Positions 7,689 to 25,268 of a DNA stretch of 64,000 nucleotides are shown here, one piece after another. This stretch comes from an uncultured Acidobacteriota bacterium (GTDB taxonomy: Bacteria > Acidobacteriota > UBA6911): assembly GCA_963843575.1 (NCBI GenBank), contig CAWJKZ010000018.1, positions 97,195-161,194 of the forward strand, read 5' to 3'. The notes under the pieces are model-generated. The model did not search any database. It saw only the letters and a program-made list of their open reading frames with translations, and was not told where the DNA came from. Every line of letters starts with the position of its first letter. The first letter of the stretch is position 1. A program made the position numbers and the translations under genes.

Positions 7689-7772
7689 CTTCGAGATTCT
7701 TCGAGTCCTTTCAGCCTGGAAGTCAGTCCAACGCGCACCTCGAAGACTGGAAGATCTCGAAGAATCTCAAAG
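7689..7772. repeat. REP-like inverted repeat, family A (CTTCGAGATTCTTCGAG / CTCGAAGAATCTCAAAG)
   Basis: 17-bp arms with 1 mismatch and ~9-bp internal periodicity; related copy at 46613-46669. Confidence 0.75.
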
Positions 7773-7793
7773 ATGGAGGCTGGGGGCCGCCCT

Positions 7794-8892
7794 TCAGTTG
7801 CCGACCATCGAGGCGCCGAAGAAGCTCAACACGTCGCCGATCGGGTTTGCCACGGCCAGGGAACTGCTGCCCGCAAAGAGGAGTCCGATGGGTTTCGGGT
7901 TGGCGGACACGTCCTGGACGAGCAGCGAGCCGGAGTCGCCGCTGTTGAGGAACGCGCTCCCCTTGTTGCCGACGATGATCTGGCCCGTGAACGTCTTGGT
8001 GAAGGCGGCGCCGCCGGCGCACTCGTTGTCGTAGGCGACGGTGACGGTGGCGTTGAGCCCGCTGACTTGGCCGCGGGTGAGGCCGGTCGTGCGGCCGCTC
8101 TTTTTGACCTTCTGTTTCATGGATGCCGTGGCCGTCTGTGCCGAGACCGTGCCGATTTCGAGGATCGCTCCGTCGGGCCTCACCATCCCGGGGACGACCC
8201 GGGCCATCGAGGCGTCGATGTTGGCGCCGGGCAGAGCCCAGCTCTGGACGAGCGTGCCGACGGTGCATGGTGCCGACCGAGCCGCAGGCGGCATCGATCA
8301 GGCCGGGCTGGATGATCGGGTCGCCGGTCGCGGCGGTGCGGCTGTTGCCGCCCGCCACGATGTCGGCCTCGAAGACGTGGTAGTTGCTCAGCAGGTGAGG
8401 ACTCCCGCCGATCGAAACCAGGGCCCCGATGGTGCCTCCGCAGCAATAGCCGTTGGCCCGATCGTAGGCCCATCCACCGGAGGTCCCCAGCTGGATCGGG
8501 GCAGCCTGGGCGGCCGTGTGCGGCGTTCCGGCGCTCCGGACGGACTTGCCCATCATGGAACGGAACGGTTCGGTGAACTGCAGCGAGACGCGGGTCCCGG
8601 CGATGCCGGCCGGGAGGTTCCGCGCGGTCTTGTCCGGGTTTTTCCCCTGCGCGTTGACGAAGACGAGGATCGTGATTTCCCCGTCGTCGTCCTGGCCCAC
8701 GGCCGTCCCGAGTACGTCTCCGTAGCGCATCAGGGCCGGCGTGGCCGCCTCTTGCACCTCGAGGACCCGGCGGACCTTCGGGTGCTTCGGGGTCAGCTCG
8801 CCGTCGGGATCCTGGGCGGCGACGGCCAGGGTGACAAGGGCAAGTGCAAAAGCGAAAAGCGCGGCTGAAACTCGTTTGAGAAGGGTGCTCAT
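7794..8892 (-). CDS. Secreted Nal1-like trypsin-family serine protease, split by a 1-nt frameshift near 8265
   Basis: Signal peptide, GTIGA, LSNYHV (His), NIDA (Asp), KSGRTTGLT, GDSGS (Ser), GLLFAG; the two halves are in ORFs 7723..9117 and 7794..8294; 1099 nt = 3n+1. Confidence 0.85.
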
Positions 8893-9141
8893 GTTCTCTC
8901 CGGTTCGTGATCGAGGAACGGCCCTGGTGGAGGTGGAACCCGCAGTGCGGATTGGACCTCCACCCGGTGATCGACCGCAGCGGCCAGCCGTGCAGGCGGT
9001 CAACGGACGCCAGCTCGACTGGGTTGAACGTGCGGTCACCGCCGGCACGTTGGCGGGGGATCGAGTTGACCACCCCGGTGCAGCGTGAAGGTAATTTACC
9101 GGTGCGGGCGCAGTCAATTCGCGGGAATACTCATTTCAGGC

Positions 9142-9157
9142 TGCGTAGATTTACCCA
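9142..9157 (-). promoter_or_regulatory. Putative NarL-family operator TGGGTA-N4-TACGCA
   Basis: Imperfect palindrome matching the sites at 9718 and 13454; upstream of the protease gene. Confidence 0.45.
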
Positions 9158-9202
9158 ATTGCCCGTGGCGACAGCTGCGCGGCCTGCAAGGGCACTTCGG
9201 CG

Positions 9203-9658
9203 TCAGTGGCTGGAACTGTTCGGCGGACAGTTGCCGCGGGGGCCGGCGGCTGGACTGCGGAAATACTTCGACACGTAATTGCGGCCGGCCAGCACGTCGG
9301 AGATGGCGGGGAGAAGCTCGAGGTCGATGACGTCCTTGAGGACGTAACCCTCGGCGCCGGCCGAAATCGCCTCCTGGAGATATTCCCGTTCCTTGTGTAT
9401 CGACAGGATCAGGATCTTCACTTCCGGGTGCTGCGCTTTTATCCTGCGCGCAACCTCCATCCCGTGGACTTTCGGCATGGTGATGTCGAGGATCACCAGG
9501 TCCGGACTCGCGCGGTCGTCTTCCATCATCTGAAGCAGCGCCAGCCCATCGGCGACTTCCCCGACCACGTCGAGGTCCTGTTCCGCGGCGACCAGCTTTC
9601 TAACGTACTCCCGGATCATCGGGTGGTCGTCGGCCAGTACCAGACGGAGCGCGCACAT
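9203..9658 (-). CDS. NarL-type receiver domain lacking the LuxR HTH
   Basis: LADDHPMIR...LDITMP...AGAEGYVLK; ends after the receiver domain; similar to the regulators at 9916 and 24477. Confidence 0.85.
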   Translation of the reverse strand: MCALRLVLADDHPMIREYVRKLVAAEQDLDVVGEVADGLALLQMMEDDRASPDLVILDITMPKVHGMEVARRIKAQHPEVKILILSIHKEREYLQEAISAGAEGYVLKDVIDLELLPAISDVLAGRNYVSKYFRSPAAGPRGNCPPNSSSH

Positions 9659-9717
9659 GGGGTCATTATCGGGCGAAGGGGTGGCGGAGGGAAGTTGTGA
9701 AAGTACCCAATTAGCAA

Positions 9718-9733
9718 TGGGTATTAATACTCA
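9718..9733 (+). promoter_or_regulatory. Putative NarL-family operator TGGGTA-TTAA-TACTCA
   Basis: AT-rich near-palindrome ~60 bp upstream of the 9658 start; extra TACCCA half-site at 9704-9709. Confidence 0.5.
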
Positions 9734-9753
9734 CTGCTCGGGTGGGCCGCTTG

Positions 9754-9909
9754 TGGAGTGCGGCGGCTCGACGCCGCTTTGGTGGCGGCGCCTTGGCGCC
9801 ACCAAAGGCCGAGGTCGCAGTCGCATCTCGCAATTCGGGCGTGGCGCCGAGGCGCCGAGCATTCCTGCCGTAGGACGAGTGGAAAGCGGCGCCGAGGCGC
9901 CGCACTCCA
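9754..9909. repeat. REP-like doublet, family B (TGGAGTGCGGC...GCCGCTTT and its reverse complement)
   Basis: Inverted copies at 9754-9780 and 9883-9909 with inner palindromes; single copy at 51183-51210. Confidence 0.8.
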
Positions 9910-9915
9910 GATTCG

Positions 9916-10563
9916 TCAGATGAAGCCCTTCTTGATGGCGTACTTGACAAGGTCGGCGGTCTTGTTGACCTGCAGCTTCGCCATGGCGTTGGCGCGGTGT
10001 CGCTCGACGGTCCTGGAGCTGATGAAGAGGATTTTCCCGATCTCTTTGCTGGATTTCCCCTCCGCGATGAGTTTGAGCACCTCCCGCTCGCGCAGGGAAA
10101 GGGGTTCGGTGGTGAGGGCGGGGCGCTTGCCGCGGCGCATCTGGGCCCAGTCGTTGCGCGACTCGTCCGCAAGGAACCGGGATATGTAGATCTTGCCCTC
10201 CAGAATCATATCGATGGCCAGGAAGAGGTCTCTTTCGGCGTCTTCCTTCAAGAGATACCCGTCGGCCCCGGCCGAGATTGCCTCGTTCAGGTAGTCCTGG
10301 TCCTTGTGCATGGTCAGGATGAGGATCTTGGCGGCCGGGCGCATCCGCTTGATTTCGGGGATGGCCTCGATGCCGCGCAGGTGCGGCATCGAGATGTCCA
10401 GCAGCACCAGATCCGGGTCGGCGGTGCGCAGCAATTCGAGCAGTTCGGGGCCGTTGCCCGCCTCGCCCGCGATCTCGAGGTCTGACCGTTCGGAGAGGAT
10501 CTTTTGCAGTCCCTGCCGCAGCAGCAGGTGGTCGTCGGCGAGCACGATCCGGTGTCTGGTCAT
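9916..10563 (-). CDS. NarL/NreC-family response regulator (REC + LuxR HTH)
   Basis: LADDH, LDISMP, LSLREREVLKLIAEGKSSKEIG...RTVERHR. Confidence 0.95.
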   Translation of the reverse strand: MTRHRIVLADDHLLLRQGLQKILSERSDLEIAGEAGNGPELLELLRTADPDLVLLDISMPHLRGIEAIPEIKRMRPAAKILILTMHKDQDYLNEAISAGADGYLLKEDAERDLFLAIDMILEGKIYISRFLADESRNDWAQMRRGKRPALTTEPLSLREREVLKLIAEGKSSKEIGKILFISSRTVERHRANAMAKLQVNKTADLVKYAIKKGFI

Positions 10564-13244
10564 TCCGCCTTTTCCTGCCTGGCGATAGGTATTGAGATCT
10601 GGACAGTGGTGCCCGCGGCGGGCCTGCTCGTGATCTGGAGGGTCCCGTCGAGCATGCGCACGCGTTCACGCATGATCGTGAGCCCGAGGCTCGGGGTGGC
10701 CGGCTGGGTATTCGGACGAAGCCCGGAGCCGTCGTCAGTAATGAGGCACTCGATGGCGGTGGCGGATGCCTTGAGGCTAACGGCCACGGTGTGCGCGCCT
10801 GCGTGGCGGGCGACGTTGGTGAGCGCCTCCTGGACGACGCGGTACAGGGTGATGTGACGGTCGCGCGGCAGCAGGGGGTCGACGCCATCCAACTCGGTCG
10901 TGACCTCGATGCCGGTGGCCCGGGCAAGATCGTGCCCGAGCCTCCTCAACGCGGCCGAGAGCCCGAGGTCCTCCAGGATGCTCGGGCTGAGGTCGCGCGA
11001 CAGCCGGCGCACGCTGTCGATCATGTCGTCGATATACGACCGCATCCCGTCGCATTCGACCTGGAGGTCGCGCTGCTCGGCCGGGAGTTTTTTCACGAAG
11101 GAGCCGAGCCGCAGTTTCAGCAGCGTCATCGACTGCCCGAGTTCGTCGTGCAGTTCCCTGGAGATGCGGCTGCGTTCGGTTTCCTGCGCCGTCAGGAGCT
11201 GGGCGGAGAGGAACCGCAATTCCTCTTCCGAGGCGCGCAAGGCCTCCTCGGACCGTTTGCGCTCGGTGATGTCGTGGAAGAGCTCGAGCTTTCCGATACT
11301 GCCGTCTTGGGTTTCGACGGGTGTGTCGAACAGGTCGTAAGTCTTGCCGGTTTTCGGGGAAGTCCACTCCCAGTGCACGTCGGATCCCGAAAATGCCGGA
11401 AGGCTGGGACACGAGGGGCAGGATTCGTCCATCCCCTTGAAATACTCGTGGCACGTGCGCCCGTCGACGGGTCCAAACTCCTTTTCGAGCCAGGGATTTT
11501 TGTATTCGATCTCGTTGCGTCGGTTGGCGATGTAGATGCCTTGGGGCATGGCGTCCAGGATGCGCTTGAGCTTGTTGCGCTCCTCCTGCACCGCCTGCTC
11601 CATGCGGAGGCGCTCTGTGATGTCGGTTCCCAGTTCCATCACGAGCCGGACGTTGTCGCGCAGGTCGAACGGGTAGTGATAGACGTGGTATTGCCGCCCC
11701 TCCGGCGAAGTCCAGACGCGCTCGGCGGCGGTGTTAGCCCTGAGGACCCTCAAGGTCGGGCAGTCCTCGCACGGCTCGTCGCGTCGCGCCATGACGGTGT
11801 AGCACGGGTTGACGCCGGCATCCCCGAAGATCTCGCGGAACCGGCGGTTGGTGAATTTTACGGAACAGTCTTCGCCGTGCAGGCAGACGAAGGAGGGGAG
11901 CCCGTCCAGGATTTTGAAGAGACGCTGCCGTTCCGAATCGAGCTCCTCGTTGAGGCCTGCCAGCTGTGCCGTGCGCTCGAGGACGCGCTGTTCCAGCTGG
12001 TCGTGGGCCCGCTTGAGCCCTTCCTGTGCCCTGATGCGTTCGATCGCGGGACCGAGCTGCCCGGCTGCGACCTTGACCAGGTCCATCAACGGCAGCATCG
12101 CCCTCGAGTCGGGCAGCCCCGCTAGGTGAATCACTCCCAGTTTGCGCGGGCCCACGCGGATCGGGGCGAGTGCGACGCCGTCGAACCCCTGCGCTCGGCA
12201 GGCGTTCCTGATCCATTGTTCGCGTTGTGGCGGGGACATCGAAACCGCGTCAGATGTTTCGAAGACGCCGGGATCAAAATCGGCGAAGGCGGTGTGTGCC
12301 AGTCTCCCGGCTTCGTCCCAGGTCCAGATGCCCGCAGCGGAACAGCCGGTCAGGCTCCTGATCTTGGCGACGCACTCCTGAAGCAGCGGCTTCACTTCCA
12401 GGTGCCGGTTGGCCAGCATCAGGAACTCGTTGGAGACCTGCAGCACTCGCTGCGTTCTCTTCAGCTCGGAGATGTCGCGCCAGGCCACGACCCCGCCCGT
12501 TATTGCGCCCTGGTCGTCCCGGATCGGCGCGGCGTTGCAGAGCGCGGTGATGACCGAACCGTCGGCCCGGTGCAGGACCCATTCCTCGTTGGTGACTACC
12601 TCGCCGTAGCGCGTGGCCCGCGTGAGCGGGAGCTGCGCCACCGGCGCGGGCTCGCCGGTCGGAGGGGAGCCTTCCCATGCTTCGTGCGCCGGCCGCGCCA
12701 TATTTTCCCCCAAACTGGCCCCGCGCAGCATCTCGAGCCCGTACTTGCTGCTGCGCTGTATCGCGGCGTCGGAGGCGTCCGCAATGGTGATCCCCTCCGG
12801 GATGTGTTCCAGCAACGCGTCGAGGGCTCTCTCGTGTTTGCGTGTCTGCTCCAGGTTGCGGCGCAACCGAATCAGCGCGTTAATGGTCGCAATCAGGAGC
12901 TCGGGCTCAACCGGATCGGCCACATAGCTGTCGGCCCCGGAGCCGAGTCCCTGGAGCCTGTCGCTCGAGTGGATGAACTTGGACGAAATTTGCACGACCA
13001 GGGTCGAGGCCGTGCCTGGTTCTGACTTAATCCGGCTGCACACCTCGATCCCCGAGATGTCGGGAAGGCTGACGTCGAGCAGGGCTACCTCCGGGCGCTC
13101 GCTCGCGACGAGCCGGAGAGCCTCCAGCCCCGTGTGCGCCTCGATGACCCGGAACCCGGCGTTGCGCAGGATGAAGCTCCTCATATACAGGACGTCTTCG
13201 TTGTCGTCCACGTTCAGGACGGTGGCGGTCGGTTGCGAGGACAT
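10560..13244 (-). CDS. Sensor kinase REC-PAS-GAF-PAS-PAS-HisKA_3-HATPase
   Basis: ERSRISRELHDELGQ H-box, QEALTNVARHA N-box; two PAS domains with C-x10-C-x2-CP; ATGA overlap with regulator. Confidence 0.93.
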   Translation of the reverse strand: MSSQPTATVLNVDDNEDVLYMRSFILRNAGFRVIEAHTGLEALRLVASERPEVALLDVSLPDISGIEVCSRIKSEPGTASTLVVQISSKFIHSSDRLQGLGSGADSYVADPVEPELLIATINALIRLRRNLEQTRKHERALDALLEHIPEGITIADASDAAIQRSSKYGLEMLRGASLGENMARPAHEAWEGSPPTGEPAPVAQLPLTRATRYGEVVTNEEWVLHRADGSVITALCNAAPIRDDQGAITGGVVAWRDISELKRTQRVLQVSNEFLMLANRHLEVKPLLQECVAKIRSLTGCSAAGIWTWDEAGRLAHTAFADFDPGVFETSDAVSMSPPQREQWIRNACRAQGFDGVALAPIRVGPRKLGVIHLAGLPDSRAMLPLMDLVKVAAGQLGPAIERIRAQEGLKRAHDQLEQRVLERTAQLAGLNEELDSERQRLFKILDGLPSFVCLHGEDCSVKFTNRRFREIFGDAGVNPCYTVMARRDEPCEDCPTLRVLRANTAAERVWTSPEGRQYHVYHYPFDLRDNVRLVMELGTDITERLRMEQAVQEERNKLKRILDAMPQGIYIANRRNEIEYKNPWLEKEFGPVDGRTCHEYFKGMDESCPSCPSLPAFSGSDVHWEWTSPKTGKTYDLFDTPVETQDGSIGKLELFHDITERKRSEEALRASEEELRFLSAQLLTAQETERSRISRELHDELGQSMTLLKLRLGSFVKKLPAEQRDLQVECDGMRSYIDDMIDSVRRLSRDLSPSILEDLGLSAALRRLGHDLARATGIEVTTELDGVDPLLPRDRHITLYRVVQEALTNVARHAGAHTVAVSLKASATAIECLITDDGSGLRPNTQPATPSLGLTIMRERVRMLDGTLQITSRPAAGTTVQISIPIARQEKAE

Positions 13245-13469: not shown

Positions 13470-13568
13470 CCGCGGCTTGGGTGTTTGTGCGGATTGATCG
13501 GGGTCGCCTCCGGGCCGACAATGAGCCCACGGGTGAGGAGGCGGTCGCGTTTGCGGAAAATAGTGAAT

Positions 13569-14162
13569 ATGGTTCCGTCCAGATCGACGATCCGGTTGCT
13601 CAAAGCCTTCGTCGTCGTCGCGGCCGTGACGGCCGTGTGCGCCGTTGTTGGCCTGCGCGACCGCACCCGCCCTGCTCCCCACGGTGAGAGCGCCGCCGCG
13701 ACCCCAGCCGCCGCCGCCGCCCCTGGCGTCGAGACGCCGGATCACGAGCTGAAGGTCCTGGAGGCCGCCGCGCGCAAGAAGCCCGGGCACGCGCCGGTTC
13801 TGTTCAGGCTGGCCACCCTGGCCGAGGCGGCGGGCCGCGCGGAGGATGCACGGAAATACCTGGAGCAGATCCTGCGGGGGGAGCCGCAAAACCTGGAGGC
13901 CAGGCTCGAACTCGGGAAGGTGATGTTCGGGGCGGGCGACGTCGCCGCGGCCCTGACGCAAACCAACCTTGTCCTGAAGAGCCACCCCGATCACCCGGAC
14001 GCGCTCTACAACCTCGGCGCGATCTACGGCAACCTGGGCGACGAGCGCCTGGCCCGGGAGAACTGGATGCGGCTTCTTGCGACCAGCCCCTCGAGCGAAA
14101 GCGGCAGGCGCGCACGGCAGGCCCTCGACCGGCTGGGGGGTGGTCCCGGGGACCGCCCATGA
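13569..14162 (+). CDS. Membrane-anchored TPR protein (possible cytochrome maturation or assembly accessory)
   Basis: N-terminal hydrophobic segment, then TPR motifs (P.NLEARLELG, PDHPDALYNLG); ATGA overlap with next gene. Confidence 0.8.
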   Translation: MVPSRSTIRLLKAFVVVAAVTAVCAVVGLRDRTRPAPHGESAAATPAAAAAPGVETPDHELKVLEAAARKKPGHAPVLFRLATLAEAAGRAEDARKYLEQILRGEPQNLEARLELGKVMFGAGDVAAALTQTNLVLKSHPDHPDALYNLGAIYGNLGDERLARENWMRLLATSPSSESGRRARQALDRLGGGPGDRP

Positions 14163-16093
14163 TGCGCCCGGTCGCGTGGACTGCGGTCGTGGGACTGCTG
14201 CTGTCCTGCGGCGCCCCCGTGTGGGCGCAGATCTCGCCGGGGCCGCTGTCGCAAGCCCACGCCTCTCTGAGCGGCCCGTCGCACTGCGTCGACTGCCACG
14301 ACGTGGCGAAGCATCCGCCGGAATACAAGTGCCTGGGATGCCACAACGAAATCCGGCAGCGCCTGGACGAACGCAGAGGACTGCATCCCTCCGAGGTTGG
14401 GCAGGACCGCACCGGCCGGAGCTGCGTCCGATGCCACTCCGACCACAACGGCCGCGATTTCAACCTCATTCACTGGGACACCGCGGTGGAGAGATTCGAT
14501 CACCATCGTGCCGCGTATGCGCTCGAGGGCAGGCACGCCGGGCTCCCTTGCCGGGCCTGCCACAAACCCGAGCACATCGCCGACCCCGCCGCCCTCAAGA
14601 CCCGCGACCTGGCACGCACCTTCCTTGGCCTGTCGCGACAGTGCGCGTCGTGCCACACCGACGAACACCGGCGGCAGTTGCCCGGCGCGTGCGAGCGCTG
14701 CCACAATTTCAGGGGGTGGAAAGTCGATCTGAACTTCGACCATGCCAGCGCGAGATTCCAGCTCGACGGGGCGCACGCGCGTGTCGCGTGCGAACGCTGT
14801 CACCACAGGAGCCAGGACTCCAAGCCCTTTACCCTGTACCGCGGCCTCGACCACAGTCAGTGCTCCTCGTGTCACCGCGATCCGCACCGCGGCTCTTTCC
14901 GGGCCGAGTGCGCGTCCTGCCACTCCACCCGGAACTGGGCGCCGAACCAGGTCGCCTCGGCTTTCGATCACGCCAAGACCGTCTTTCCCCTCAAGGGGAA
15001 GCACGTCGGCCTCGCCTGCCGCTCGTGCCATTCCCAGCCTGACTTCAAGCAGCCCGTGGCCCACGGCCAGTGCGCCGATTGCCACAGGAAGGACCCGCAC
15101 GGCGGGCAGTTCGAGCGCCGGGCCGACCGCGGTTCCTGTTCCTCCTGCCACTCGGAGGAGGGATTCAAACCGGCGACCTTCTCTGTCCCCGACCACCAGC
15201 GGACGCGCTTTGCGCTTGAGGGCAAGCACCTTGACGTTGCCTGCGCGAAGTGCCACGTCCCGCGCGGGGCCGACACGGTCTATGCCATGGTTGAGCAGTC
15301 GTGCGCCTCGTGTCACAAGGACCCGCACGGTGGGCAGTTCCAGGGGCCGCCGCACCAGAACCGCTGCGAGCACTGTCACACGACCAGGGGCTTCCGGCCC
15401 TCGACCTTTACCCTCACGCAACACCGCCAGACCGGGTTTGCCCTGACCGGGAGCCACCAGGCCGTGGCGTGCGTCGAGTGCCACGCCGGCTCCGGCTCGA
15501 CGAGCGCGAGATACCGGTTTCAGGACACCGGATGCACCGCCTGCCACCGCGACCCTCACCAGGGGGAATTCGCGGCGCGCACCGCCGCATTGCGACCCGA
15601 TGGCAGACCGGCAGGGTGCGAGTCGTGCCACAACACCCTGACCTGGCGCGATCTGTCTAAGTTCGACCACGCCTCGACCCGTTTCGCGCTGCGGGGGATC
15701 CATCGTGGCCTGGCGTGCGAACAATGCCACAAGTCGACGACCTTCAAACCGGGCCTGAGCGGCGCCCTGTTCCGCTCGACGCCCCGCGAGTGCTCCGGGT
15801 GCCACGAGGACCCCCACGGAGGGCAGTTCAGCGGGAACAGCGACTGCGGCCGCTGCCACAACTTGGTGAAGTGGAAGCCGTCGCTCTTCGACCACGCAAA
15901 GGACTCCACCTACTCGCTGCAGGGGGCGCACCAACAGGTCCGCTGCGGGCTCTGCCACGTCAAGCAGAGCGCACCGTCAGGCCGCCCCATCCTGGTATAC
16001 CGTGGCACGCCCCGCACGTGCGGGGCGTGCCACGGACCCGGGTCCCCGCAGCTGACCGGCAGCCTGGAGACGGGAGGGTCGGCGACGCCATGA
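14159..16093 (+). CDS. Multiheme c-type cytochrome, 23 CXXCH motifs, exported
   Basis: Signal peptide; 23 CXXCH counted; repeating FDH..F.L.G.H / DPH.GQF triheme units. Confidence 0.95.
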   Translation: MMRPVAWTAVVGLLLSCGAPVWAQISPGPLSQAHASLSGPSHCVDCHDVAKHPPEYKCLGCHNEIRQRLDERRGLHPSEVGQDRTGRSCVRCHSDHNGRDFNLIHWDTAVERFDHHRAAYALEGRHAGLPCRACHKPEHIADPAALKTRDLARTFLGLSRQCASCHTDEHRRQLPGACERCHNFRGWKVDLNFDHASARFQLDGAHARVACERCHHRSQDSKPFTLYRGLDHSQCSSCHRDPHRGSFRAECASCHSTRNWAPNQVASAFDHAKTVFPLKGKHVGLACRSCHSQPDFKQPVAHGQCADCHRKDPHGGQFERRADRGSCSSCHSEEGFKPATFSVPDHQRTRFALEGKHLDVACAKCHVPRGADTVYAMVEQSCASCHKDPHGGQFQGPPHQNRCEHCHTTRGFRPSTFTLTQHRQTGFALTGSHQAVACVECHAGSGSTSARYRFQDTGCTACHRDPHQGEFAARTAALRPDGRPAGCESCHNTLTWRDLSKFDHASTRFALRGIHRGLACEQCHKSTTFKPGLSGALFRSTPRECSGCHEDPHGGQFSGNSDCGRCHNLVKWKPSLFDHAKDSTYSLQGAHQQVRCGLCHVKQSAPSGRPILVYRGTPRTCGACHGPGSPQLTGSLETGGSATP

Positions 16094-19000
16094 TCCATCG
16101 CGTCCAGACACAGTCACGCTGCCTGCCGCCGTGCACGGTCCCGGTCCTCCTCGGAGTGCTCGGGGTCCTGCTCTCCCTGGCGGCCACGGCTCCGGTGGCC
16201 GCCAGCCAGGAACAGGCGCGCGGACGCACGCGCAACCCGCACGGCCCCCTGCATATCGCCTGCGAGAACTGCCACACATCCACCAGCTGGAGCCCGATCC
16301 GGCCGTCACCCGATTTCTCGCACCGGGAGACGCGCTTCCCGCTGCGCGGGCTGCACACGAACGTCGCCTGCCGACTCTGCCACGTGCGGCTGGAGTTCAG
16401 CGACGTGGGAACACGGTGCGCCGACTGCCACGCCGACATCCACCGGCGCCAGTTCGGCGGCGACTGCGGGCAATGTCACACCGTCCGCGGCTGGAAGGTC
16501 ACCTCCCAGGCCATCAAAGGGCACCAGAACCGTTTCCCCTTGCTGGGAGCGCACGCCTCGACCGAGTGCCAGTCCTGCCACAAGAACGCGGCGGCCGGGC
16601 AGTTTTTGGGTCTCAGTACCGAATGCTCGTCCTGTCACCTGAAGGACTACCAGGCGGCGCGCAACCCCGATCACAAGGCGGCAAATCTCCCGGCGACCTG
16701 CGCCTCCTGCCACCGGTTCGATTCGTGGACCGGCGTGGCCTTCGATCATGCCCGATTCACCGGGTTCGCCCTCAGCGGCGCCCACACGCGGCTGTCCTGC
16801 GCTGAGTGCCACACCGGCGGCCGGTATACCGGAACCCCGGCGAACTGTTTCAGCTGCCACGCCCGGGAATACACCTCGACCGGCGACCCCAGCCACACTG
16901 CTGCCGGCTTCCCGACCGATTGTTCAAAGTGCCACACGACGCTGTCGTGGGCCGGCGCTTCCTTTGACCACAACACGACCCGGTTCGCTTTGACCGGGGC
17001 CCACTCCAAGATCGCCAGCTGCACGGCGTGCCATGTCTCCGGACGATTTGCCGGAACTCCATCGGACTGCTACAGCTGCCACATCCGGGACTACGAACGC
17101 ACCTCCAACCCCAATCACGGGAAGAGTTCCTTTTCCACCTCGTGCGCCACCTGCCATACGACCGCAGGCTGGGCCGGCGCAAAGTTCGACCACAGCCTCG
17201 CGCGCTTTGCGCTGACCGGCGCCCATCTGCAGGCTCCCTGCGCGTCCTGCCACAAGAACGGCCAATACACCGGCACCCCGGCCGATTGCGCAAGCTGTCA
17301 CCTTGCCGACTTCAACGGCACGAAAGACCCAAACCACGCGGCCGCGGGCTTCCCGCAGACGTGCGAGACCTGCCACACGACGACGCAGTGGAAGGGGGCG
17401 AAGTTCGACCACAACACCGGAACGAAGTTCCCGCTGACGGGGGCGCACGCGCGGGTGGACTGCGCGTCGTGCCACAAGAACGGCCAGTACAAGGGGACGT
17501 CGACGGATTGCGTCGGCTGCCACCTGGCCGATTTCAACGGCACGAAAGATCCGAACCACACGGCCGCGGGCTTCCCGCAGACGTGCGAGACCTGCCACAC
17601 GACGACGCAGTGGAAAGGGGCGAAGTTCGACCACAACACGGGAACGAAGTTCCCGCTGACGGGGGCGCACGCGCGGGTGGATTGCGCGTCCTGCCACAAA
17701 AACGGCCAGTACCGGGGAACGTCGACGGATTGCGTCGGCTGCCACCTGGCCGATTTCAACGGCACGAAAGATCCGAACCACACGGCCGCGGGCTTCCCGC
17801 AGACGTGCGAGACCTGCCACACGACGACGCAGTGGAAGGGGGCGAAGTTCGACCACAGCACGGGAACGAAGTTCCCGCTGACGGGGGCGCACGCGCGGGT
17901 GGATTGCGCGTCCTGCCACAAAAACGGCCAGTACCGGGGAACGTCGACGGATTGCGTCGGCTGCCACCTGGCCGATTTCAACGGCACGAAAGATCCGAAC
18001 CACACGGCCGCGGGTTTCCCGCAGACGTGCGAGACCTGCCACACGACGACGCAGTGGAAGGGGGCGAAGTTCGACCACAGCACGGGAACGAAGTTCCCGC
18101 TGACGGGGGCGCACGCCCGGGTGGATTGCGCGTCGTGCCACAAAAACGGCCAGTACCGCGGGCTCCCTGCGAGCTGCGTGTCGTGTCACAGGGCCGCATA
18201 CGACAGCACTACGAACCCGAACCACTCGGCAGCCGGTTTCCCGCAGGATTGCGCGGCGTGCCACGGCACCTCGCAGTGGAGTGGAGCCCGTTTCGACCAC
18301 AACGCCGCGACGAAGTTCCCGCTGACCGGCGCTCACGTGGCCGTGTCCTGCAAGGAGTGCCACGCGGGGGACCGTTTCGCGGGCACACCCGCGGACTGCT
18401 ACTCCTGCCACAGCGCCGCCTACACCGGAACGAAGAACCCGCCGCACGTGTCCTCGGGGTTCCCTCGGGACTGCACCCTGTGTCACTCCACCTCGGGCTG
18501 GCAGGGCGCCGTTTTCGACCACAGCCGGACGCGCTTCACGTTGACGGGTGCGCACACGACCGCCCAGTGCGTGCAATGCCACGTCAACAACGTGTTTGCA
18601 GGGACACCCACCCAGTGTGTCGCCTGCCATCTTTCGGAATACGGCAAAACCACGAACCCGAATCACGCGGCCGCGGGTTTCCCGCAAGACTGCTCACTGT
18701 GCCACGCGACTACAGGCTGGCAGGGCGCGAAGTTCGACCACACCGCCACCAAGTTCCCGTTGACCGGGGCGCACGTCGCCGCGAGCTGTGCTGCTTGTCA
18801 CTCCGGTGGCGTCTACGCCGGGCTGAACACCTCCTGCGTGTCGTGCCACCTGACGAATTTCAACAACACACGCAACCCGGACCATAAGGCCGGCGGTTTC
18901 CCCCAGCAGTGCGAAATCTGTCACGGCACGGCCGCCTGGACGCCTGCGTCCTTCGATCACGCCAGAACGGGGTTCCCGCTCACCGGGGCCCACACCTCGG

Positions 19001-19386
19001 TCCAGTGCGTCAACTGTCACGTCGGGGGGAGATACCAGGGAACCCCGACCGATTGCTACTCGTGCCACCAACTCGAATACCGGAGTGTCACCGACCCGAA
19101 CCACGCGGCGGCCGGTTTCCCGACCAACTGCACCCTCTGCCACACCACGGCCACCTGGAGCGGTGCGAAGTTCAACCACACCTTTCCGATCTATTCGGGG
19201 TCCCACGCGGGCAAGTGGAACACCTGCGGCGAGTGCCATCCGAACTCGAGCAACTACTCCGTCTTCTCGTGTACCAATTGCCACGAGCACGAAAAGACGA
19301 AAATGGACCAGGAACACCGGGATGTACGGAACTATGTTTACAACAGCGCCAACTGCTACTCGTGCCATCCGAACGGGCGGCATTAG
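16090..19386 (+). CDS. Giant multiheme c-type cytochrome, 43 CXXCH motifs, ~1098 aa, exported
   Basis: Start ATG 16090 (ATGA overlap), signal peptide, 43 CXXCH counted, ~74-aa triheme repeats. Confidence 0.95.
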   Translation: MIHRVQTQSRCLPPCTVPVLLGVLGVLLSLAATAPVAASQEQARGRTRNPHGPLHIACENCHTSTSWSPIRPSPDFSHRETRFPLRGLHTNVACRLCHVRLEFSDVGTRCADCHADIHRRQFGGDCGQCHTVRGWKVTSQAIKGHQNRFPLLGAHASTECQSCHKNAAAGQFLGLSTECSSCHLKDYQAARNPDHKAANLPATCASCHRFDSWTGVAFDHARFTGFALSGAHTRLSCAECHTGGRYTGTPANCFSCHAREYTSTGDPSHTAAGFPTDCSKCHTTLSWAGASFDHNTTRFALTGAHSKIASCTACHVSGRFAGTPSDCYSCHIRDYERTSNPNHGKSSFSTSCATCHTTAGWAGAKFDHSLARFALTGAHLQAPCASCHKNGQYTGTPADCASCHLADFNGTKDPNHAAAGFPQTCETCHTTTQWKGAKFDHNTGTKFPLTGAHARVDCASCHKNGQYKGTSTDCVGCHLADFNGTKDPNHTAAGFPQTCETCHTTTQWKGAKFDHNTGTKFPLTGAHARVDCASCHKNGQYRGTSTDCVGCHLADFNGTKDPNHTAAGFPQTCETCHTTTQWKGAKFDHSTGTKFPLTGAHARVDCASCHKNGQYRGTSTDCVGCHLADFNGTKDPNHTAAGFPQTCETCHTTTQWKGAKFDHSTGTKFPLTGAHARVDCASCHKNGQYRGLPASCVSCHRAAYDSTTNPNHSAAGFPQDCAACHGTSQWSGARFDHNAATKFPLTGAHVAVSCKECHAGDRFAGTPADCYSCHSAAYTGTKNPPHVSSGFPRDCTLCHSTSGWQGAVFDHSRTRFTLTGAHTTAQCVQCHVNNVFAGTPTQCVACHLSEYGKTTNPNHAAAGFPQDCSLCHATTGWQGAKFDHTATKFPLTGAHVAASCAACHSGGVYAGLNTSCVSCHLTNFNNTRNPDHKAGGFPQQCEICHGTAAWTPASFDHARTGFPLTGAHTSVQCVNCHVGGRYQGTPTDCYSCHQLEYRSVTDPNHAAAGFPTNCTLCHTTATWSGAKFNHTFPIYSGSHAGKWNTCGECHPNSSNYSVFSCTNCHEHEKTKMDQEHRDVRNYVYNSANCYSCHPNGRH
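17239..18160 (+). repeat. Intragenic tandem repeat, 222-bp unit, about 4 near-identical copies
   Basis: TGCGCGTC(C/G)TGCCACAA recurs at 17239, 17461, 17683, 17905 and 18127. Confidence 0.95.
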
Positions 19387-21037
19387 CGTCGCGGGCCTCT
19401 GGTGGCTGGCCTGGCTTGTGTGTTGCGGCAACGCGGTCGCGCAGACGGGCGACCCGGGGGTGAGGGACCGCTTCCGCGTCAAATACGTCGCCGAGGGGGC
19501 CGTCTATCTCGAAGGCGGACGCTCCGCCGGGTTGGCCGAAGGCCAGCGCCTGACGCTGCGGCGCGGCGAAAACAGCGGCGCCGAGGCCGTCGCCGAACTG
19601 CGGGTTTTTTCCGTGGCATCGGCGTCGGCCGTGTGCGAGGTGGTGTCGTCGGACGGGCCGGTCGAGCCGGGCGATGTCGCCTACCTGTCCACCGAGGACG
19701 TGCAACGCCTGCGGTTGCTCAAGGATAGCCGGGAATCCAGGAAGTACCCGCAGGTAATCTCGTTCACGGAAGGAGATCCGCTCGACGAGGAGGCCAGGGA
19801 AAGCGTGCCGCGCCCTCCACTGCCGGAGATCAACCGCGCGCGCGGGAGGTTCGGGTTCGAATACAGCTCCATCCGGGACCGCGAGGCACAAGGCACCGGT
19901 TCGAGCCAGCTCGGCGGCGTGGTGCGCGCCGACATGACGCGCGTGGGCGGTACCCACTGGAACTTCAGCGGCTATTACCGCGGCCGCTTCACCTCGCGCA
20001 GCCGTGCGCAGCAGGAGACCCTGACCGATCTGATCAACCGCACCTACCATCTCAGCCTTTCCTACAACAACCCCGGCTCGAATTGGGTGGCCGGTTTCGG
20101 GCGCCTGTATCTCCCGTGGGCGAGCAGCCTCAACACGATCGACGGCGGCTATGTCGGACGCCGTCGCGGCAAACACACCGTCTTCGGCCTGTTCGGCGGA
20201 TCCACCCCCGACCCCACCACCTGGAACTACACTCCCGGCCGCCAGATCGCCGGCAGCTTCGTCAACTTCGAAGCCGGCCACTTCGAGTCTTTCCGTTACA
20301 CGAGCACGTCGGGCGTCGCGCTCGCCAGGGTCCACTGGCACCCCGACCGCCAATTCGGTTTTTTCGAAAACGGGTTCTTCTACAAGGGTCTCTTTTCGCT
20401 CTATCACAACCTGGAAGCTGACCTGCTGCGCGGTGCGCCCGAGGCGCCGGCCAGCGGGCTGGTGGCCAGCCGGAGCTACCTTACGATTCGGGTGCAGCCC
20501 AACCGGTTTGTGGTCTTCGACCTGAATCACAACTACTTCCGGAACATCCCCACCTTCGACGAGCGGCTGGTCGGGACCGGTCTGCTGGACAAGCTCCTGT
20601 TCCAGGGCGTGAGCGGCGGCGTCCGGTTGGAGCTCCCGTATTCCATCAGCCCGTACTTCAGCCTCGGCCGCAGCGACCGGACGGGGGACGCCCGGACGGC
20701 CTGGAACCGGATGTTCGGTGTCGTAGTGCGCCGCGTCTGGAAGACGGGTTTGCGCGCCGATGCGAGATATTCCAGCTTCGACAGCTCCTTCGGCCGTGGC
20801 ACGTACCGCTCGCTGTCGTTGTCGCGGGAGTTGGGCGAGCGGTTCCGCTTCGACGTGCAGGCCGGCGATCAGGATCTGGTGTCGGCGATGACCCGGGACA
20901 ACCGCGCCCGTTGGCTCAACGCGGACGCCGATTGGTTCCTCGGCCCGCACTATTTCCTCGGGGCGGGCGTTACGTTTTATCGCGGGCGGGCGCAGAGTTA
21001 CGACCAGTGGTTCCTGAACCTGGGCTACCGGTTTTGA
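19334..21037 (+). CDS. Outer-membrane beta-barrel (porin-like) with small N-terminal beta domain
   Basis: Signal peptide ending AVA-Q, many alternating amphipathic strands, C-terminal beta-signal WFLNLGYRF; start ATG 19334 (or 19322) overlaps the cytochrome 3' end. Confidence 0.85.
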   Translation: MFTTAPTATRAIRTGGISVAGLWWLAWLVCCGNAVAQTGDPGVRDRFRVKYVAEGAVYLEGGRSAGLAEGQRLTLRRGENSGAEAVAELRVFSVASASAVCEVVSSDGPVEPGDVAYLSTEDVQRLRLLKDSRESRKYPQVISFTEGDPLDEEARESVPRPPLPEINRARGRFGFEYSSIRDREAQGTGSSQLGGVVRADMTRVGGTHWNFSGYYRGRFTSRSRAQQETLTDLINRTYHLSLSYNNPGSNWVAGFGRLYLPWASSLNTIDGGYVGRRRGKHTVFGLFGGSTPDPTTWNYTPGRQIAGSFVNFEAGHFESFRYTSTSGVALARVHWHPDRQFGFFENGFFYKGLFSLYHNLEADLLRGAPEAPASGLVASRSYLTIRVQPNRFVVFDLNHNYFRNIPTFDERLVGTGLLDKLLFQGVSGGVRLELPYSISPYFSLGRSDRTGDARTAWNRMFGVVVRRVWKTGLRADARYSSFDSSFGRGTYRSLSLSRELGERFRFDVQAGDQDLVSAMTRDNRARWLNADADWFLGPHYFLGAGVTFYRGRAQSYDQWFLNLGYRF

Positions 21038-21153: not shown

Positions 21154-21951
21154 ATGAGAAGCGGAACTTTCGCGTTGTGGCTGTTCATCCTCGGCACGAG
21201 CCCCGTCGCCGGTGCGAAGAAACCTGCGCCCCCGGTAGGATCGCTCCCGATCGCGGATCTCATAGACAGGGTCGGAGAGAACGTCGAGGCTTTCGGGACG
21301 AGGTTTTCCGAGGTCAGCTGCACCGAATCGGTCGTACAGGCGAAGCTCGACAAGGCGGGGAAGGTGCTCTACCACCAGGAATCGGCTTTCGATTACCTGA
21401 TCCTGATGAATCTCCAGGGCGAGGAGCCGTCGCTCGAAGAATCCCGCGTGGTTCAAAAACAGGCCAAGGCGGCGGCAAACCTGCCACTGCTTCTCACCAG
21501 CGGGTTCCCGACGCTGCAGCTCGTCTTCCACCCCTACTACCAGGCCGGCTTCACCTATGAGCGACTGCCTGACGACCCGGCGGACGGCAAGGTTTTTGTG
21601 CGCATCCGGTTCCGCCACATCAAGGGAGCGCGCTCGACCTCAGCCCTGAGGCTGCGCGGCAGGGACTTCCCGCTCGACCTGGAAGGGACGGCGTGGGTGG
21701 ATCCCGACTCGGCTGCCATCGCGCGCATCACGGCGGGCCTGGAGTTCCCCGCCGAGGACCTGGGGTTGCAGTCCCTCCAGACCGACGTGCGTTACGCGGA
21801 CACGCGCTTCCCCGGCATCGAGACCACCTACTCGCTCCCGGTCGTGGCGACCGTGGAGGTGGAAACGCCGCGGCAGCGGTGGCGCAACACGCACCGGTTC
21901 TCCGCCTACCGGCTCTTCTCGGTGCGCTCCGAGAGCACGGTGTCCAAATGA
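21154..21951 (+). CDS. Exported hypothetical protein (beta-rich)
   Basis: AGGAG RBS, signal peptide ending VAG-A, ATGA overlap with next gene. Confidence 0.8.
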   Translation: MRSGTFALWLFILGTSPVAGAKKPAPPVGSLPIADLIDRVGENVEAFGTRFSEVSCTESVVQAKLDKAGKVLYHQESAFDYLILMNLQGEEPSLEESRVVQKQAKAAANLPLLLTSGFPTLQLVFHPYYQAGFTYERLPDDPADGKVFVRIRFRHIKGARSTSALRLRGRDFPLDLEGTAWVDPDSAAIARITAGLEFPAEDLGLQSLQTDVRYADTRFPGIETTYSLPVVATVEVETPRQRWRNTHRFSAYRLFSVRSESTVSK

Positions 21952-22880
21952 GCAAAAGCCTGACGGAACTGGTTGTAGGCTCCGCCGCCGCCGTCGAGCT
22001 CCCGCGCGAGCGGGGGCATCGGGCGGCGATCCTGCTTCTCGCGCTCGCGGCCGCGGCGCTGATGGTCGCGCTGACGCTGTACGGCTTCGACTACTACTGG
22101 CTGGATCAGGTGAGCCGGCCCCATTCTCCCAAGCACGCCCAGCTGAGGCCCGGAGGCGTCGTCGGGATCAGGCTGGGCATCCTGGGGATAGTGCTTTTAT
22201 TCTTGATCTATCTTTACCCGATCCGGAAACGCTGGGCCTGGCTGGGTAGCAAGGGGAGCACCAAGCACTGGTTCGACTATCACATCCTCCTCGGGCTCGT
22301 CGCCCCGGTGGTCGTCAGCTTCCATGCGTCCTTCAAGGCCCAGGGGCTGGCGGGGTTGGCCTACTGGACGATGGCCGTCCTGACGGCGAGCGGCATCGTG
22401 GGGCGGTACCTCTACGCGCAGATTCCCAGAAGCCGCGCCGCCGCCGAGAGCTCGCTGAAGCAGCTCGAGGCCTCCAGCACCCAGCGCGGCCGGATGGTGG
22501 AGGCCTCGGCCGGGTTTGCCCAGGTGGTGCGGCTGCCGGATATCAGGGAGGTGCAGGCGATGTCGTCGGTGCGGGCGCTCTGGCTGATGCTCGCCTGGGA
22601 CCTCCAACAGCCGCTGCTCCTGTGGAGGGTGAGACGACGCCTCTCCCCTGGACGCGGGCTGCTGACTTTGGGCGGGGTGCTGTCGACAGGCGACGCCGCC
22701 CTCGAGCAGGCTATCCGCGAGACCCGGCGCCAGGTGGTCATGACCAGGAAAATCCTCCTCCTGTCCAAGGCGGAGAAGATCTTTCACCTCTGGCACGTCC
22801 TGCACCGGCCCTTCAGCATATCGCTCGCCATCCTGGTGCTGCTCCACTTGGCCATCGTGTTTCTGTTCGGTTACTACTGA
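21948..22880 (+). CDS. Inner-membrane diheme-b protein, ferric-reductase-like transmembrane family
   Basis: Several TM helices; two His pairs at i/i+14 (DYH-x13-H and VLH-x13-H); SGIVGRYLY motif. Confidence 0.8.
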   Translation: MSKSLTELVVGSAAAVELPRERGHRAAILLLALAAAALMVALTLYGFDYYWLDQVSRPHSPKHAQLRPGGVVGIRLGILGIVLLFLIYLYPIRKRWAWLGSKGSTKHWFDYHILLGLVAPVVVSFHASFKAQGLAGLAYWTMAVLTASGIVGRYLYAQIPRSRAAAESSLKQLEASSTQRGRMVEASAGFAQVVRLPDIREVQAMSSVRALWLMLAWDLQQPLLLWRVRRRLSPGRGLLTLGGVLSTGDAALEQAIRETRRQVVMTRKILLLSKAEKIFHLWHVLHRPFSISLAILVLLHLAIVFLFGYY

Positions 22881-22908: not shown

Positions 22909-24291
22909 ATGATCGACGAACTCTTCATATACGCCATCCTGGCCCTTGTCCTCGTTGTTCCCGCGGTCGTCTATTTCAGCCGCATGCGGAGGCGCGAGGC
23001 CCGGGCGCTAGCCGCCCTCGAAAAGGGGAAGCTCTTCTCGGAGCGCCCGCCCGTACAACACCCCAGCATCGACCTTGCGCGCTGCATCGGTTGCGGCACC
23101 TGCGTCAGCGCCTGCCCCGAGGGGGACGTGCTGGCGATCGTGGCCGGACGGGCAGCCATCGTCAACGGCCACAAGTGCATCGGCCACGCCCTCTGCGCCG
23201 AAGCGTGCCCCGTGGGCGCCATCACGATGACCATGGGGGATCCCAGCGTCGGCGCCGACATCCCGCACCTCAGCGCGGAATACGAGACCAACATACCCGG
23301 CATGTTCGTCGTCGGCGAACTCGGTGGCCTGGCGCTGATCAGGAATGCGGTCAACCAGGGCCGGGAGTGCATCGACACGATCGTCCGCAGGCTGGCCGCG
23401 GACCGCGCTGCTGCGGGGGAAGACGATCCCTACGACGTCTGCGTCGTGGGCGCCGGGCCGGCGGGCATCAGCGCCTCGCTGCGCGCCATCGAGAAGAAAC
23501 TGAGCTACATCACTCTGGAACAGGACGAGATCGGCGGCACAGTCGCCAAGTACCCGCGCCAGAAACTCGTCATGACCAGCCCCGTGGAGTTCCCGATGTA
23601 CGGCCGCTTCCGCAAGCTCGAGATCTCCAAGGAGAACCTGATGGAATTCTGGCAGACGGTCTTCCGGCGCGCGGATTTCAAAGTGCTCACGGGCGAAAAG
23701 GTCGAGCACATCACACGGGAACCGGATGCCACCTTCCGGGTCCGCGGCGTGAAAGGGGAATACCGCGCGCGCACCGTCATCCTGGCGCTCGGCAGGAGGG
23801 GAACGCCGCGCAAGCTGGGCATCCTGGGGGAGGGCTTGCCCAAGGTCATGTACAGCCTCATCGAGGCGGAATCCTACACCGATAAGAAAATCCTCGTGGT
23901 CGGGGGCGGTGACAGTGCCGTGGAGGCCGCCATGGGGCTCGCGCATCAGCCGGGCAACACCGTCACCCTCTCCTACCGCAAGGACGCCTTTGCCCGCATC
24001 AAAGAACGCAACAGCCGGAAAATCGAGGAGTTTATCCGCGCCGGAAAAATCCGGGTCCTGTTCAACTCCAATCCCGTCGAGATCCGGGAAGGCTCCGTCC
24101 TGCTCGACGTTCAGGGGACGCCGCTGGAAATGCCCAACGACTTCGTCTGGGTTTTCGCCGGCGGTACCCCGCCCAGGGATTTCCTGCAGAAAGTCGGCGT
24201 CGTGCTCGGCCGCGAAGACTTCACCCGCGAAACGCACGACGAGGCGCAGCGCGCCCGGAGCGAGTCCTCCCAGCCGATCCTGCCGAGCTAA
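22909..24291 (+). CDS. Membrane-anchored dicluster ferredoxin fused to thioredoxin-reductase-like FAD/NAD(P)H oxidoreductase
   Basis: N-terminal TM; CIGCGTCVSACP and CIGHALCAEACP; VGAGPAG (FAD); VGGGDSA and YRK (NADPH). Confidence 0.9.
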   Translation: MIDELFIYAILALVLVVPAVVYFSRMRRREARALAALEKGKLFSERPPVQHPSIDLARCIGCGTCVSACPEGDVLAIVAGRAAIVNGHKCIGHALCAEACPVGAITMTMGDPSVGADIPHLSAEYETNIPGMFVVGELGGLALIRNAVNQGRECIDTIVRRLAADRAAAGEDDPYDVCVVGAGPAGISASLRAIEKKLSYITLEQDEIGGTVAKYPRQKLVMTSPVEFPMYGRFRKLEISKENLMEFWQTVFRRADFKVLTGEKVEHITREPDATFRVRGVKGEYRARTVILALGRRGTPRKLGILGEGLPKVMYSLIEAESYTDKKILVVGGGDSAVEAAMGLAHQPGNTVTLSYRKDAFARIKERNSRKIEEFIRAGKIRVLFNSNPVEIREGSVLLDVQGTPLEMPNDFVWVFAGGTPPRDFLQKVGVVLGREDFTRETHDEAQRARSESSQPILPS

Positions 24292-24476: not shown

Positions 24477-25124
24477 ATGACGAAATGCCGCTTGATTCTC
24501 GCCGACGATCACCTCCTGGTGAGGCAGGGATTGAGGAGGATACTCGCCCAGCGCCCGGACCTGGAGGTGGTGGGGGAAGTGGGGGACGGGCTGGCGTTGC
24601 TTGGGGCGCTGTCGAGGCTGGCTCCGGACCTCGTGCTCCTCGATCTGTCGATGCCCAACCTGCGGGGGATCGAAGCGATTCCGGAGCTCAAGAGAAGCAG
24701 GCCGAATATGAAAGTGCTGGTGCTCACGATGCACCGGGACCCGGAGTACCTCTATCAAGCTATCGCCGCCGGGGCGGACGGCTATTTGTTGAAGGAGGAC
24801 GCCGACAGCGACCTCTTCTCCGCCATCGATACGGTCGTGGGCAACCGGGTCTACGTCTCCAAGTTCCTCTCGGAGCAGTCGCGCCGCGACTGGGCGGCGC
24901 TTCGCCGGGGCGGCGACCCCGGCACGGGCGCAGATGCGCTGTCGGTGCGTGAGCGCGAGGTGTTGAAGCTGATCGCGGAGGGGAAATCGAGCAGGGAGAT
25001 CGGCACGCTGCTGCACATAAGCGGGCGCACGGTCGAGCGGCACCGAGCCAACATGATGGACAGGCTGAACGTCCGAAGCACGGTCGAGTTGGTGAAGTAC
25101 GCCGTGAGCAAGGGGTACGTCTGA
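24477..25124 (+). CDS. NarL/NreC-family response regulator
   Basis: REC + LuxR HTH; 215 aa, colinear with 9916..10563. Confidence 0.95.
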   Translation: MTKCRLILADDHLLVRQGLRRILAQRPDLEVVGEVGDGLALLGALSRLAPDLVLLDLSMPNLRGIEAIPELKRSRPNMKVLVLTMHRDPEYLYQAIAAGADGYLLKEDADSDLFSAIDTVVGNRVYVSKFLSEQSRRDWAALRRGGDPGTGADALSVREREVLKLIAEGKSSREIGTLLHISGRTVERHRANMMDRLNVRSTVELVKYAVSKGYV

Positions 25125-25268
25125 CGTTCGAGCCTTAGGTGGGGCCCCCCCGTTGTGGCGGCGGCCTCGATTTTTTCCCGTCTCCAAGAAAAACAAACGA
25201 AACCGGGATTGGGCCGTAGAATGAGCATGAAGCCCTCGGCTCTTTCTCCATCCAGGTGAGGTGTAAGC

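Follow-up and report, generated by a model that had tools for sequence, protein, structure and literature searches.

The DNA analysed here, a stretch of 64,000 nucleotides from an uncultured Acidobacteriota bacterium (assembly GCA_963843575.1, contig CAWJKZ010000018.1, positions 97,195 to 161,194; hereafter the window), encodes a 1098-residue secreted cytochrome with 43 CXXCH motifs at 16090..19386 on the forward strand. We consider it likely that this protein is a long wire cytochrome of the PCC3 type whose repeat units are gained, lost or overwritten whole and in frame by recombination, and that recent events of this kind gave rise to its nearly identical central units, U3-U6. The main interest of the gene family lies in the mode and pace of its length evolution.

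The heme number is a motif count, and a scan of the same protein for CX3CH, CX4CH and CXXCK motifs returned none. With 90 histidines, 88 cysteines and only two methionines, the protein uses 25.5 residues per heme. Its stop-to-stop frame on the + strand extends from 15715 to 19386. We place the start at the ATG at 16090 because this codon overlaps the stop of the upstream cytochrome gene (ATGA) and a signal peptide comes next, as in the orthologues. The gene is composed of the following parts, listed with the evidence for each.

16090..19386, + strand: the whole 43-heme wire cytochrome gene (open reading frame, motifs, Pfam; ATGA overlap with the upstream gene)
16090..16206, + strand: signal peptide of about 39 residues, with a putative cleavage site (hydrophobic core, then A-x-A, then a QEQARGRTRNPHG-like mature start common to orthologues)
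16207..16797, + strand: N-terminal cap with 7 hemes (motif spacing 36, 16, 16, 34, 19, 25, identical in homologues)
16798..19224, + strand: eleven triheme units, U1-U11, of 219-222 bp (unit coordinates, identity matrices, invariant residues)
17310..18161, + strand: young tandem array, comprising the 3' two thirds of U3, the whole of U4-U6 and the first 35 nt of U7
19225..19386, + strand: C-terminal cap with 3 hemes, including the stop codon (spacing 15, 28)

The eleven units are 73-74 residues long, with CXXCH motifs spaced 33/16/25 within each. We aligned ten of the eleven, omitting U6, whose protein sequence is identical to that of U5, and found 24 invariant positions, including the three CXXCH motifs and the histidines of F-D-H, G-A-H and P-x-H. 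Each unit therefore holds six invariant histidines for its three hemes, and these counts suggest that all hemes in the protein probably have bis-His ligation. A preliminary description of the gene had proposed units of about 74 residues with three CXXCH motifs and three additional histidines, which the spacing and the unit alignment bear out. One of the motifs that it named, PNH, is exact in 8 of 11 units; the other three read PSH, PPH and PDH.

The central units of the gene form a tandem array that is far beyond chance expectation in its near-identity. Tandem Repeats Finder reported a repeat at 17239-18158 (period 222, 4.1 copies, 95% matches, no indels, score 1616), and U3-U6 share 89-99% identity at the DNA level, compared with 55-71% for all other pairs of units. 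These results confirm the earlier observation of about four near-identical central units between diverged flanks. Self-comparison at a lag of 222 delimited the near-identical block to approximately 17310-18161, or roughly 3.8 copies, with a sharp 3' edge 35 nt into U7 and a 5' edge that is graded inside U3. U5 and U6 differ at 2 of 222 nucleotides, both of them synonymous (0 nonsynonymous codons), U4 and U5 differ at 7 nucleotides (4 synonymous and 2 nonsynonymous codons), and the first 11 codons of U7 show two synonymous differences from U6. That the differences between young copies are mostly synonymous is as expected of real copies under purifying selection, and not of sequencing noise. At 99.1% identity, the U5/U6 pair is among the youngest that we saw; pairs in the relatives G017 and G007 reach 97.3% and 96.4%. 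Among the 120 best homologues, the window protein counted in, 86 contain two or more units that are at least 90% identical in protein sequence, several of them with identical units. The repeat array also contains, on the opposite strand, an open frame of 281 residues with high third-position G+C (17298-18143, - strand), which most likely reflects the repeats and the base composition rather than a gene.

Comparison with the closest homologue, P0023, places the change in length within the young array. In a global alignment the two proteins are 84.8% identical over aligned columns, have 43 (window) and 40 (P0023) hemes, and are separated by a single gap, of 74 residues, which falls inside the array. 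Window units W1, W2 and W7-W11 pair one to one with P0023 units 1, 2 and 6-10 at 82-93% amino acid identity. Units W3-W6 are all nearest to P0023 unit 5 (88-91%) and next to unit 4, and P0023 unit 3 is without a counterpart in the window protein, so turnover or homogenisation appears to have accompanied the gain. The gene had previously been described as lengthened. A unit was indeed gained relative to P0023, but the net difference is only one unit, and older units were replaced too. The close homologues that carry taxonomic names come from Bryobacterales/Bryobacteraceae metagenome-assembled genomes (MAGs). A search of 41 relatives, 51 genomes of the same family and 80 metagenome loci gave no relative above 71% protein identity, the metagenome loci reaching at most 62%.

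The same architecture recurs across a large family, in which heme numbers follow a simple rule. At least 6874 homologues were found at E ≤ 0.001 among 8000 candidates scored (603-1922 aa), with 147 more among longer proteins. By source name, most belong to Bryobacterales and Acidobacteriota and some to Gemmatimonadota, Bacteroidota, Ignavibacteria and Calditrichota. In a sample of 153 distinct complete homologues having both caps, the heme count equals 10+3n in 143, over a range of 16-115; by subset, the rule holds for 98 of 108 homologues and for 42 of 42 metagenome genes. Across five operons, the long cytochrome has 43 (window), 76 (G007), 49 (G019), 46 (G017) and 12 (G024) hemes, and where a neighbouring cytochrome is present, in four of them, it always has 23. 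The unit number is thus not fixed among orthologues, a point that the preliminary description had singled out for checking.

Differences between close relatives also fall in whole units. Among 49 pairs with caps at least 85% identical, 20 differ in heme number, all but one by a multiple of three, although these pairs are non-independent and several represent one record entered twice. In global alignments of close relatives, gaps measure 73-75 residues or multiples of this length. P0130 and P0141, for example, are 94.3% identical and have 88 and 76 hemes, with gaps of 73, 73 and 147 residues, or four whole units, and P0121 and P0127, at 91.6% identity, have 112 and 85 hemes. Some members are very large: P0129 has 137 CXXCH motifs in 3415 residues, with caps that were not recognised, P0124 has 115 and P0121 has 112 (one of these from a Bryobacterales MAG). 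Together, these counts (137, 115, 112) reach or surpass the record for one polypeptide, given as 113 motifs in the available text of PMC11492766.

The relationships among individual units indicate where gain and loss take place. In a maximum-likelihood tree (IQ-TREE) of 58 unit DNAs from four operons, units at the array edges form cross-genome clades (last units, 99/83; penultimate, 99/95; second, 99/90), and the central units form genome-specific clades (window u03-06, 99/100; 15 units of G007, 99/95; 8 units of G019, 99/91; 9 units of G017, 89/97). A nearest-neighbour table of the units agrees with the tree, with orthologous edges and a genome-specific centre, and the three syntenic orthologues carry DNA-level arrays of their own, with units of 219-222 bp. 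Conserved edges around a homogenised centre are the classical signature of arrays evolving by unequal recombination, which is how we interpret the pattern in this family. Together with the 10+3n counts, the orthologues and the close pairs, the unit clades support, between lineages, the earlier proposal that in-frame recombination adds or removes three hemes at a time.

The cytochrome gene belongs to an operon whose genes overlap or are tightly spaced. Its other members are as follows.

13485..14162, + strand: membrane-anchored TPR protein, the first gene of the operon, with an uncertain start codon (Pfam TPR families)
14159..16093, + strand: 23-heme cytochrome of the PCC3 'periplasmic MHC' (multiheme cytochrome) type (644 aa, 23 CXXCH)
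19322..21037, + strand: outer-membrane beta-barrel of 571 aa (start overlapping the 3' end of the cytochrome gene by 65 nt)
21154..21951, + strand: secreted protein of 265 aa (position conserved in 3 orthologous operons)
21948..22880, + strand: inner-membrane protein of 310 aa, PCC3 inner-membrane protein (IMP) type (W-x3-H-x13-H twice and S-G-x-x-G, here SGIVG)
22909..24291, + strand: iron-sulfur flavoprotein with 4Fe-4S dicluster and pyridine-nucleotide oxidoreductase domains (Pfam Pyr_redox_3, 2.8e-41; Fer4 families)

Three relatives from the same bacterial family keep the whole operon, and a fourth has the cytochrome gene with the barrel gene after it. The TPR gene is kept upstream of the 23-heme gene in G007 and G019, and its product might serve as a dedicated chaperone for the giant apocytochromes; the protein also gave a weak match to the CcmH/CycH TPR domain (24.2 bits, cut-off 42). 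The 23-heme count recurs in 3 of 3 syntenic orthologues of the neighbouring cytochrome, which has an A-x-A-Q type cleavage site. We rejected its classification as a lipoprotein because the cysteine at the LLSC site is not conserved. The barrel gene is syntenic in 4 relatives, and the AlphaFold2 model of its product (mean predicted local distance difference test [pLDDT] 77.5) shows a barrel of about 22 strands preceded by a small beta domain at the N terminus; Foldseek related this model to usher pores and porins with template-modelling scores of only 0.3-0.4. Many barrel homologues (P0243-P0252 and others) are longer, at 900-1150 aa, and carry an AMIN domain at the N terminus (P0246, E 6e-15) as well as a linker of about 300 residues, rich in Pro and Ala, before the barrel; the window protein is without both. 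For the 265-residue protein, searches of Pfam and NCBIfam gave no match.

In the 310-residue membrane protein, both W-x3-H-x13-H motifs and the S-G-x-x-G motif are conserved in 4 orthologues, and the protein probably binds two b hemes; its match to Pfam Ferric_reduct is weak (E 0.03). In the window, as in 3 of 3 syntenic operons, the iron-sulfur flavoprotein gene comes after the gene for this di-heme-b protein, an arrangement that hints that the electron exchange of the conduit may be with NAD(P)H or ferredoxin in the cytoplasm and not with quinones. The flanks of the operon (1000-13244 and 24477-34475) are unusually dense in genes for two-component and cyclic diguanylate signalling, including hybrid histidine kinases (PAS, GAF, MEDS), LuxR-type response regulators and a GGDEF-EAL protein. 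Farther downstream, at 58000-61700, G+C falls from about 0.65 to 0.55-0.59. This segment, with genes for two HNH endonucleases and a DnaB-like helicase, is possibly an insert of mobile or phage origin.

Gene content and motifs place this operon with the PCC3 clusters predicted by He, Barco, Emerson and Roden in 2017 (PMC5566968). As set out in the available text of that paper, a PCC3 cluster comprises a porin, two cytochromes, one very long and termed 'extracellular' (up to 85 hemes, median 34) and the other 'periplasmic' (median 21), and an inner-membrane protein of about 300 residues with SGxxG on transmembrane segment 4 and Wx3Hx13H on segments 3 and 5; its cytochromes use 22-39 residues per heme and contain internal repeats. 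In Gallionellaceae, the long PCC3 protein has 10-35 hemes and the other 21, 24 or 27, sizes that 'can vary', and AlphaFold models of PCC3 cytochromes are long and mostly linear (PMC9900912). The available text of both papers presents PCC3 systems as predicted, with none tested experimentally. The window operon shares the barrel, the very long cytochrome, the 23-heme cytochrome within the PCC3 range of 21-27, about 25 residues per heme, the internal repeats and a 310-residue inner-membrane protein with SGxxG and two Wx3Hx13H motifs. With every PCC3 feature that can be read from sequence present, we assign the 43-heme gene as the long cytochrome of a PCC3-type porin-cytochrome operon. The operon differs from the known clusters in being an acidobacterial branch that adds the TPR protein, the 265-residue protein and the iron-sulfur flavoprotein. 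Homology to the original proteobacterial PCC3 proteins is only suggested, by giant cytochromes of Aquabacterium and Bradyrhizobium (E 5.8e-56 to 3.9e-11, 25-28% identity) whose link to PCC3 is that PMC5566968 lists both genera as hosts.

Domain models identify the 43-heme protein as a multiheme c-type cytochrome that stands apart from characterised systems. It matches Pfam PF14522 Cytochrome_C7 in 12 stretches (162.1 bits, cut-off 24.8), PF02085 class III cytochrome (108.2 bits, cut-off 22.9) and also the MtrC/MtrF domain II/IV model. Its organisation as a single chain of concatenated triheme domains resembles that of GSU1996, GSU0592 and GSU2210 of Geobacter sulfurreducens, a type for which an origin by c7-module duplication and roles as wire or capacitor have all been proposed (PMC10138318, PMC11492766, in the text available). 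However, that type has a His-Met heme in each triheme domain, which the 43-heme protein, with its two methionines and six invariant histidines per unit, does not. The motif order within the unit is also different, the window protein has 43 hemes (up to 115 in its family) versus 12-27, and a barrel is encoded alongside. Whole-protein phmmer against the Protein Data Bank gave 0 hits at E ≤ 0.001, hence no match to the solved GSU1996, PpcA or c7 chains, and a profile of the units found no c7 or GSU1996 chain among solved structures at E ≤ 10. The nanowire_3heme model TIGR04257 scored below its cut-off (30.2 bits, cut-off 40), in a single stretch at residues 1005-1066.

Similarity to other systems is likewise partial. 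As in MtrCAB and MtoAB, a cytochrome is paired with an outer-membrane barrel, an arrangement that would move electrons across the outer membrane, but Mtr cytochromes have a fixed ten hemes, unlike this family, and the MtrA/DmsE model TIGR03508 gave 34.6 bits for the 23-heme protein (cut-off 192.2) and no hit for the 43-heme protein. The best matches of the unit profile among solved structures are weak: HmcA, with 16 hemes (E 0.0019), and nine-heme cytochrome c (E 0.0023). Neither is made of tandem identical units, unlike the 43-heme protein, and the NCBIfam HmcA model scored below its cut-off (66.8 bits, cut-off 400). A parallel in mode of evolution comes from bacterial tandem-repeat surface proteins, which vary their repeat number by recombination, with whole repeats kept in frame, conserved ends and a homogenised centre. 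In the cytochrome, by comparison, each repeat holds three redox cofactors, so that gaining or losing copies makes an electron path longer or shorter, where in the surface proteins it affects an adhesin stalk or an antigen.

Together, these observations suggest a mechanism for length change. The mature protein is a single chain of a 7-heme N-terminal cap, 11 triheme units and a 3-heme C-terminal cap. Because the units are direct repeats of 222 bp, misaligned homologous recombination would add, delete or overwrite whole units in frame. The route could be unequal crossing-over, or replication slippage across one unit, with a step of three hemes. Recent events in the window genome would have made units 3-6, the youngest pair being 2 of 222 nucleotides apart, and the process would run independently in related lineages, so that heme number drifts or is tuned in threes. 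The caps and edge units would stay conserved, presumably docking to partners. Electrons may be exchanged between the cytoplasmic iron-sulfur flavoprotein and the di-heme-b protein of the membrane, with the 23-heme and 43-heme cytochromes as the next carriers and the barrel as the crossing point of the outer membrane.

Several results weigh against parts of this reading, and most of them bear on one of three alternatives. In one, which we regard as possible yet the less probable account, gene conversion among pre-existing units made U3-U6 alike and the wire grew little or not at all. The lengthening relative to P0023 is modest, a net gain of one unit despite four near-identical copies, and conversion could account for a large part of the similarity. 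Each of the four young units is similar to P0023 units 4 and 5, P0023 unit 3 is unmatched, and the graded 5' edge of the array is of the kind that conversion tracts would leave. Conversion alone is insufficient, however, to account for unit numbers that differ among relatives, always by whole units, and the sharp edge 35 nt into U7 has the look of a joint left by duplication. Conversion and duplication are, moreover, both outcomes of recombination between repeats. A second alternative, that the assembler mis-built the array, so that either the count of near-identical units or the whole array is in error, appears very improbable to us, although 222-bp repeats that are 97-99% identical are difficult for assemblers and the genome is a draft (88% complete, 3.3% contamination). 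The copy number is that given by the assembly, with no read or independent contig spanning the array: a check of sequencing runs found 11 with parts of the stretch (≤0.18 of sampled words) as short contigs, four of which were aligned, and one run held exact short pieces of the array flanks only. In fragmented relatives, the long cytochrome gene is cut at contig ends (G051:C58, G044:C360, G052:C247, G023:C181). Very young copies are also uncommon in metagenomes, where none of 42 complete genes contains units with at least 95% DNA identity and 5 contain units with at least 90%, although short-read assembly would lose such genes; because the gene is typically cut at contig ends in fragmented assemblies, this set is biased against young repeats. 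Against an artefact, the copies bear their own, mostly synonymous differences, neither the reading frame nor any of the 12 Cys and His ligand positions per unit is disrupted, P0023 differs by exactly one unit at the site of the array, and three syntenic orthologues have like arrays. The assembly is contiguous (27 contigs for 6.68 Mb) and resolves two complete 16S ribosomal RNA (rRNA) genes 5.6 kb apart inside one contig, which suggests long reads, and these would span the 0.9-kb array. The 16S genes belong to tandem rRNA operons of the window genome, at G000:C24:344647-351832.

The third alternative concerns function rather than history. Here the 43-heme protein would be a periplasmic capacitor, as proposed for GSU1996, that stores electrons in the periplasm, its length setting capacity and not reach. 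We find this doubtful, but several features are consistent with it. Both the 43-heme and the 23-heme cytochromes have Sec signal peptides and no conserved lipobox, and the 43-heme protein is also without an anchor. A range of 12 to 115 hemes is hard to reconcile with a fixed geometric span, and capacitor roles have been proposed for GSU1996 (PMC10138318) and for PCC3 cytochromes (PMC9900912), in the text available of each. In the other direction, translational coupling joins the long cytochrome gene to that of a large outer-membrane barrel in each of the operons examined, and the available text of PMC5566968 gives the long PCC3 cytochrome as extracellular, in that case a prediction only. The structure of GSU1996 offers a scale: it places 12 hemes in 12 nm, according to the title of the structure paper listed in PMC10138318. 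Extrapolating from this value, 43 hemes in a similarly extended chain would span about 40 nm, each unit adding about 3 nm. A length of about 40 nm exceeds the usual width of the periplasm and therefore favours reach past the outer membrane, or a charge store. A linear heme chain draws no support from the AlphaFold2 model of units 3-7 (residues 350-730), which is of low confidence (pLDDT 60.4, predicted template-modelling score 0.22) and gave no Foldseek match at E ≤ 0.001. The location, the partners and the direction of electron flow of the 43-heme protein are all predictions, and the operon was not found in the single same-genus genome compared, which is 81% complete. On balance, we continue to favour a wire cytochrome that changes length by in-frame recombination among its units.

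Parts of this picture are already published, namely the PCC3 conduit, very large and variable heme numbers, and internal repeats. Modular 'grafting and pruning' of multiheme cytochromes has also been described (PMC9250108), in an account whose available text never uses the words duplication, tandem, repeat or recombination, and a 2026 preprint reports other porin-cytochrome clusters of Bryobacterales, with 8-13 hemes. A full-text literature search, covering few subscription journals and excluding the supplements of PMC5566968, did not find the cap-(triheme)n-cap rule with its 10+3n counts. Nor did the same incomplete search find the edge/centre pattern, unit-wise differences between near-identical proteins or recent DNA-level amplification; its matches to 'tandem repeat' concerned Borg elements, PgcA and operon duplications instead. 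The three-heme step and the recent amplification events therefore appear to be new.

Many soil and sediment bacteria encode giant multiheme cytochromes, and gain and loss of whole units would explain the wide variation in heme count between genomes. As long cytochrome genes break short-read assemblies, short-read MAGs probably miss some of these repeat genes and show others cut short, so that surveys based on MAGs would count too few of them and also misjudge their size. More speculatively, and in our view improbably, wire length could be a fast-evolving trait under selection, with the array acting like a contingency locus and one population containing differing heme numbers. If so, selection on reach through the envelope or matrix, or on charge storage, would set the length, which would explain why 12 to 115 hemes are found behind identical caps while the partner stays at 23. 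According to the available text of PMC11492766, no cytochrome with more than 16 hemes has a solved structure, though giant multiheme cytochromes exist. The family described here is a natural length series, with the same caps and partners and 12 to 115 hemes in steps of three, and the window gene shows one such step that is only a few substitutions old. Such a series makes it testable how conduction, charge storage and reach depend on the number of hemes in one chain.

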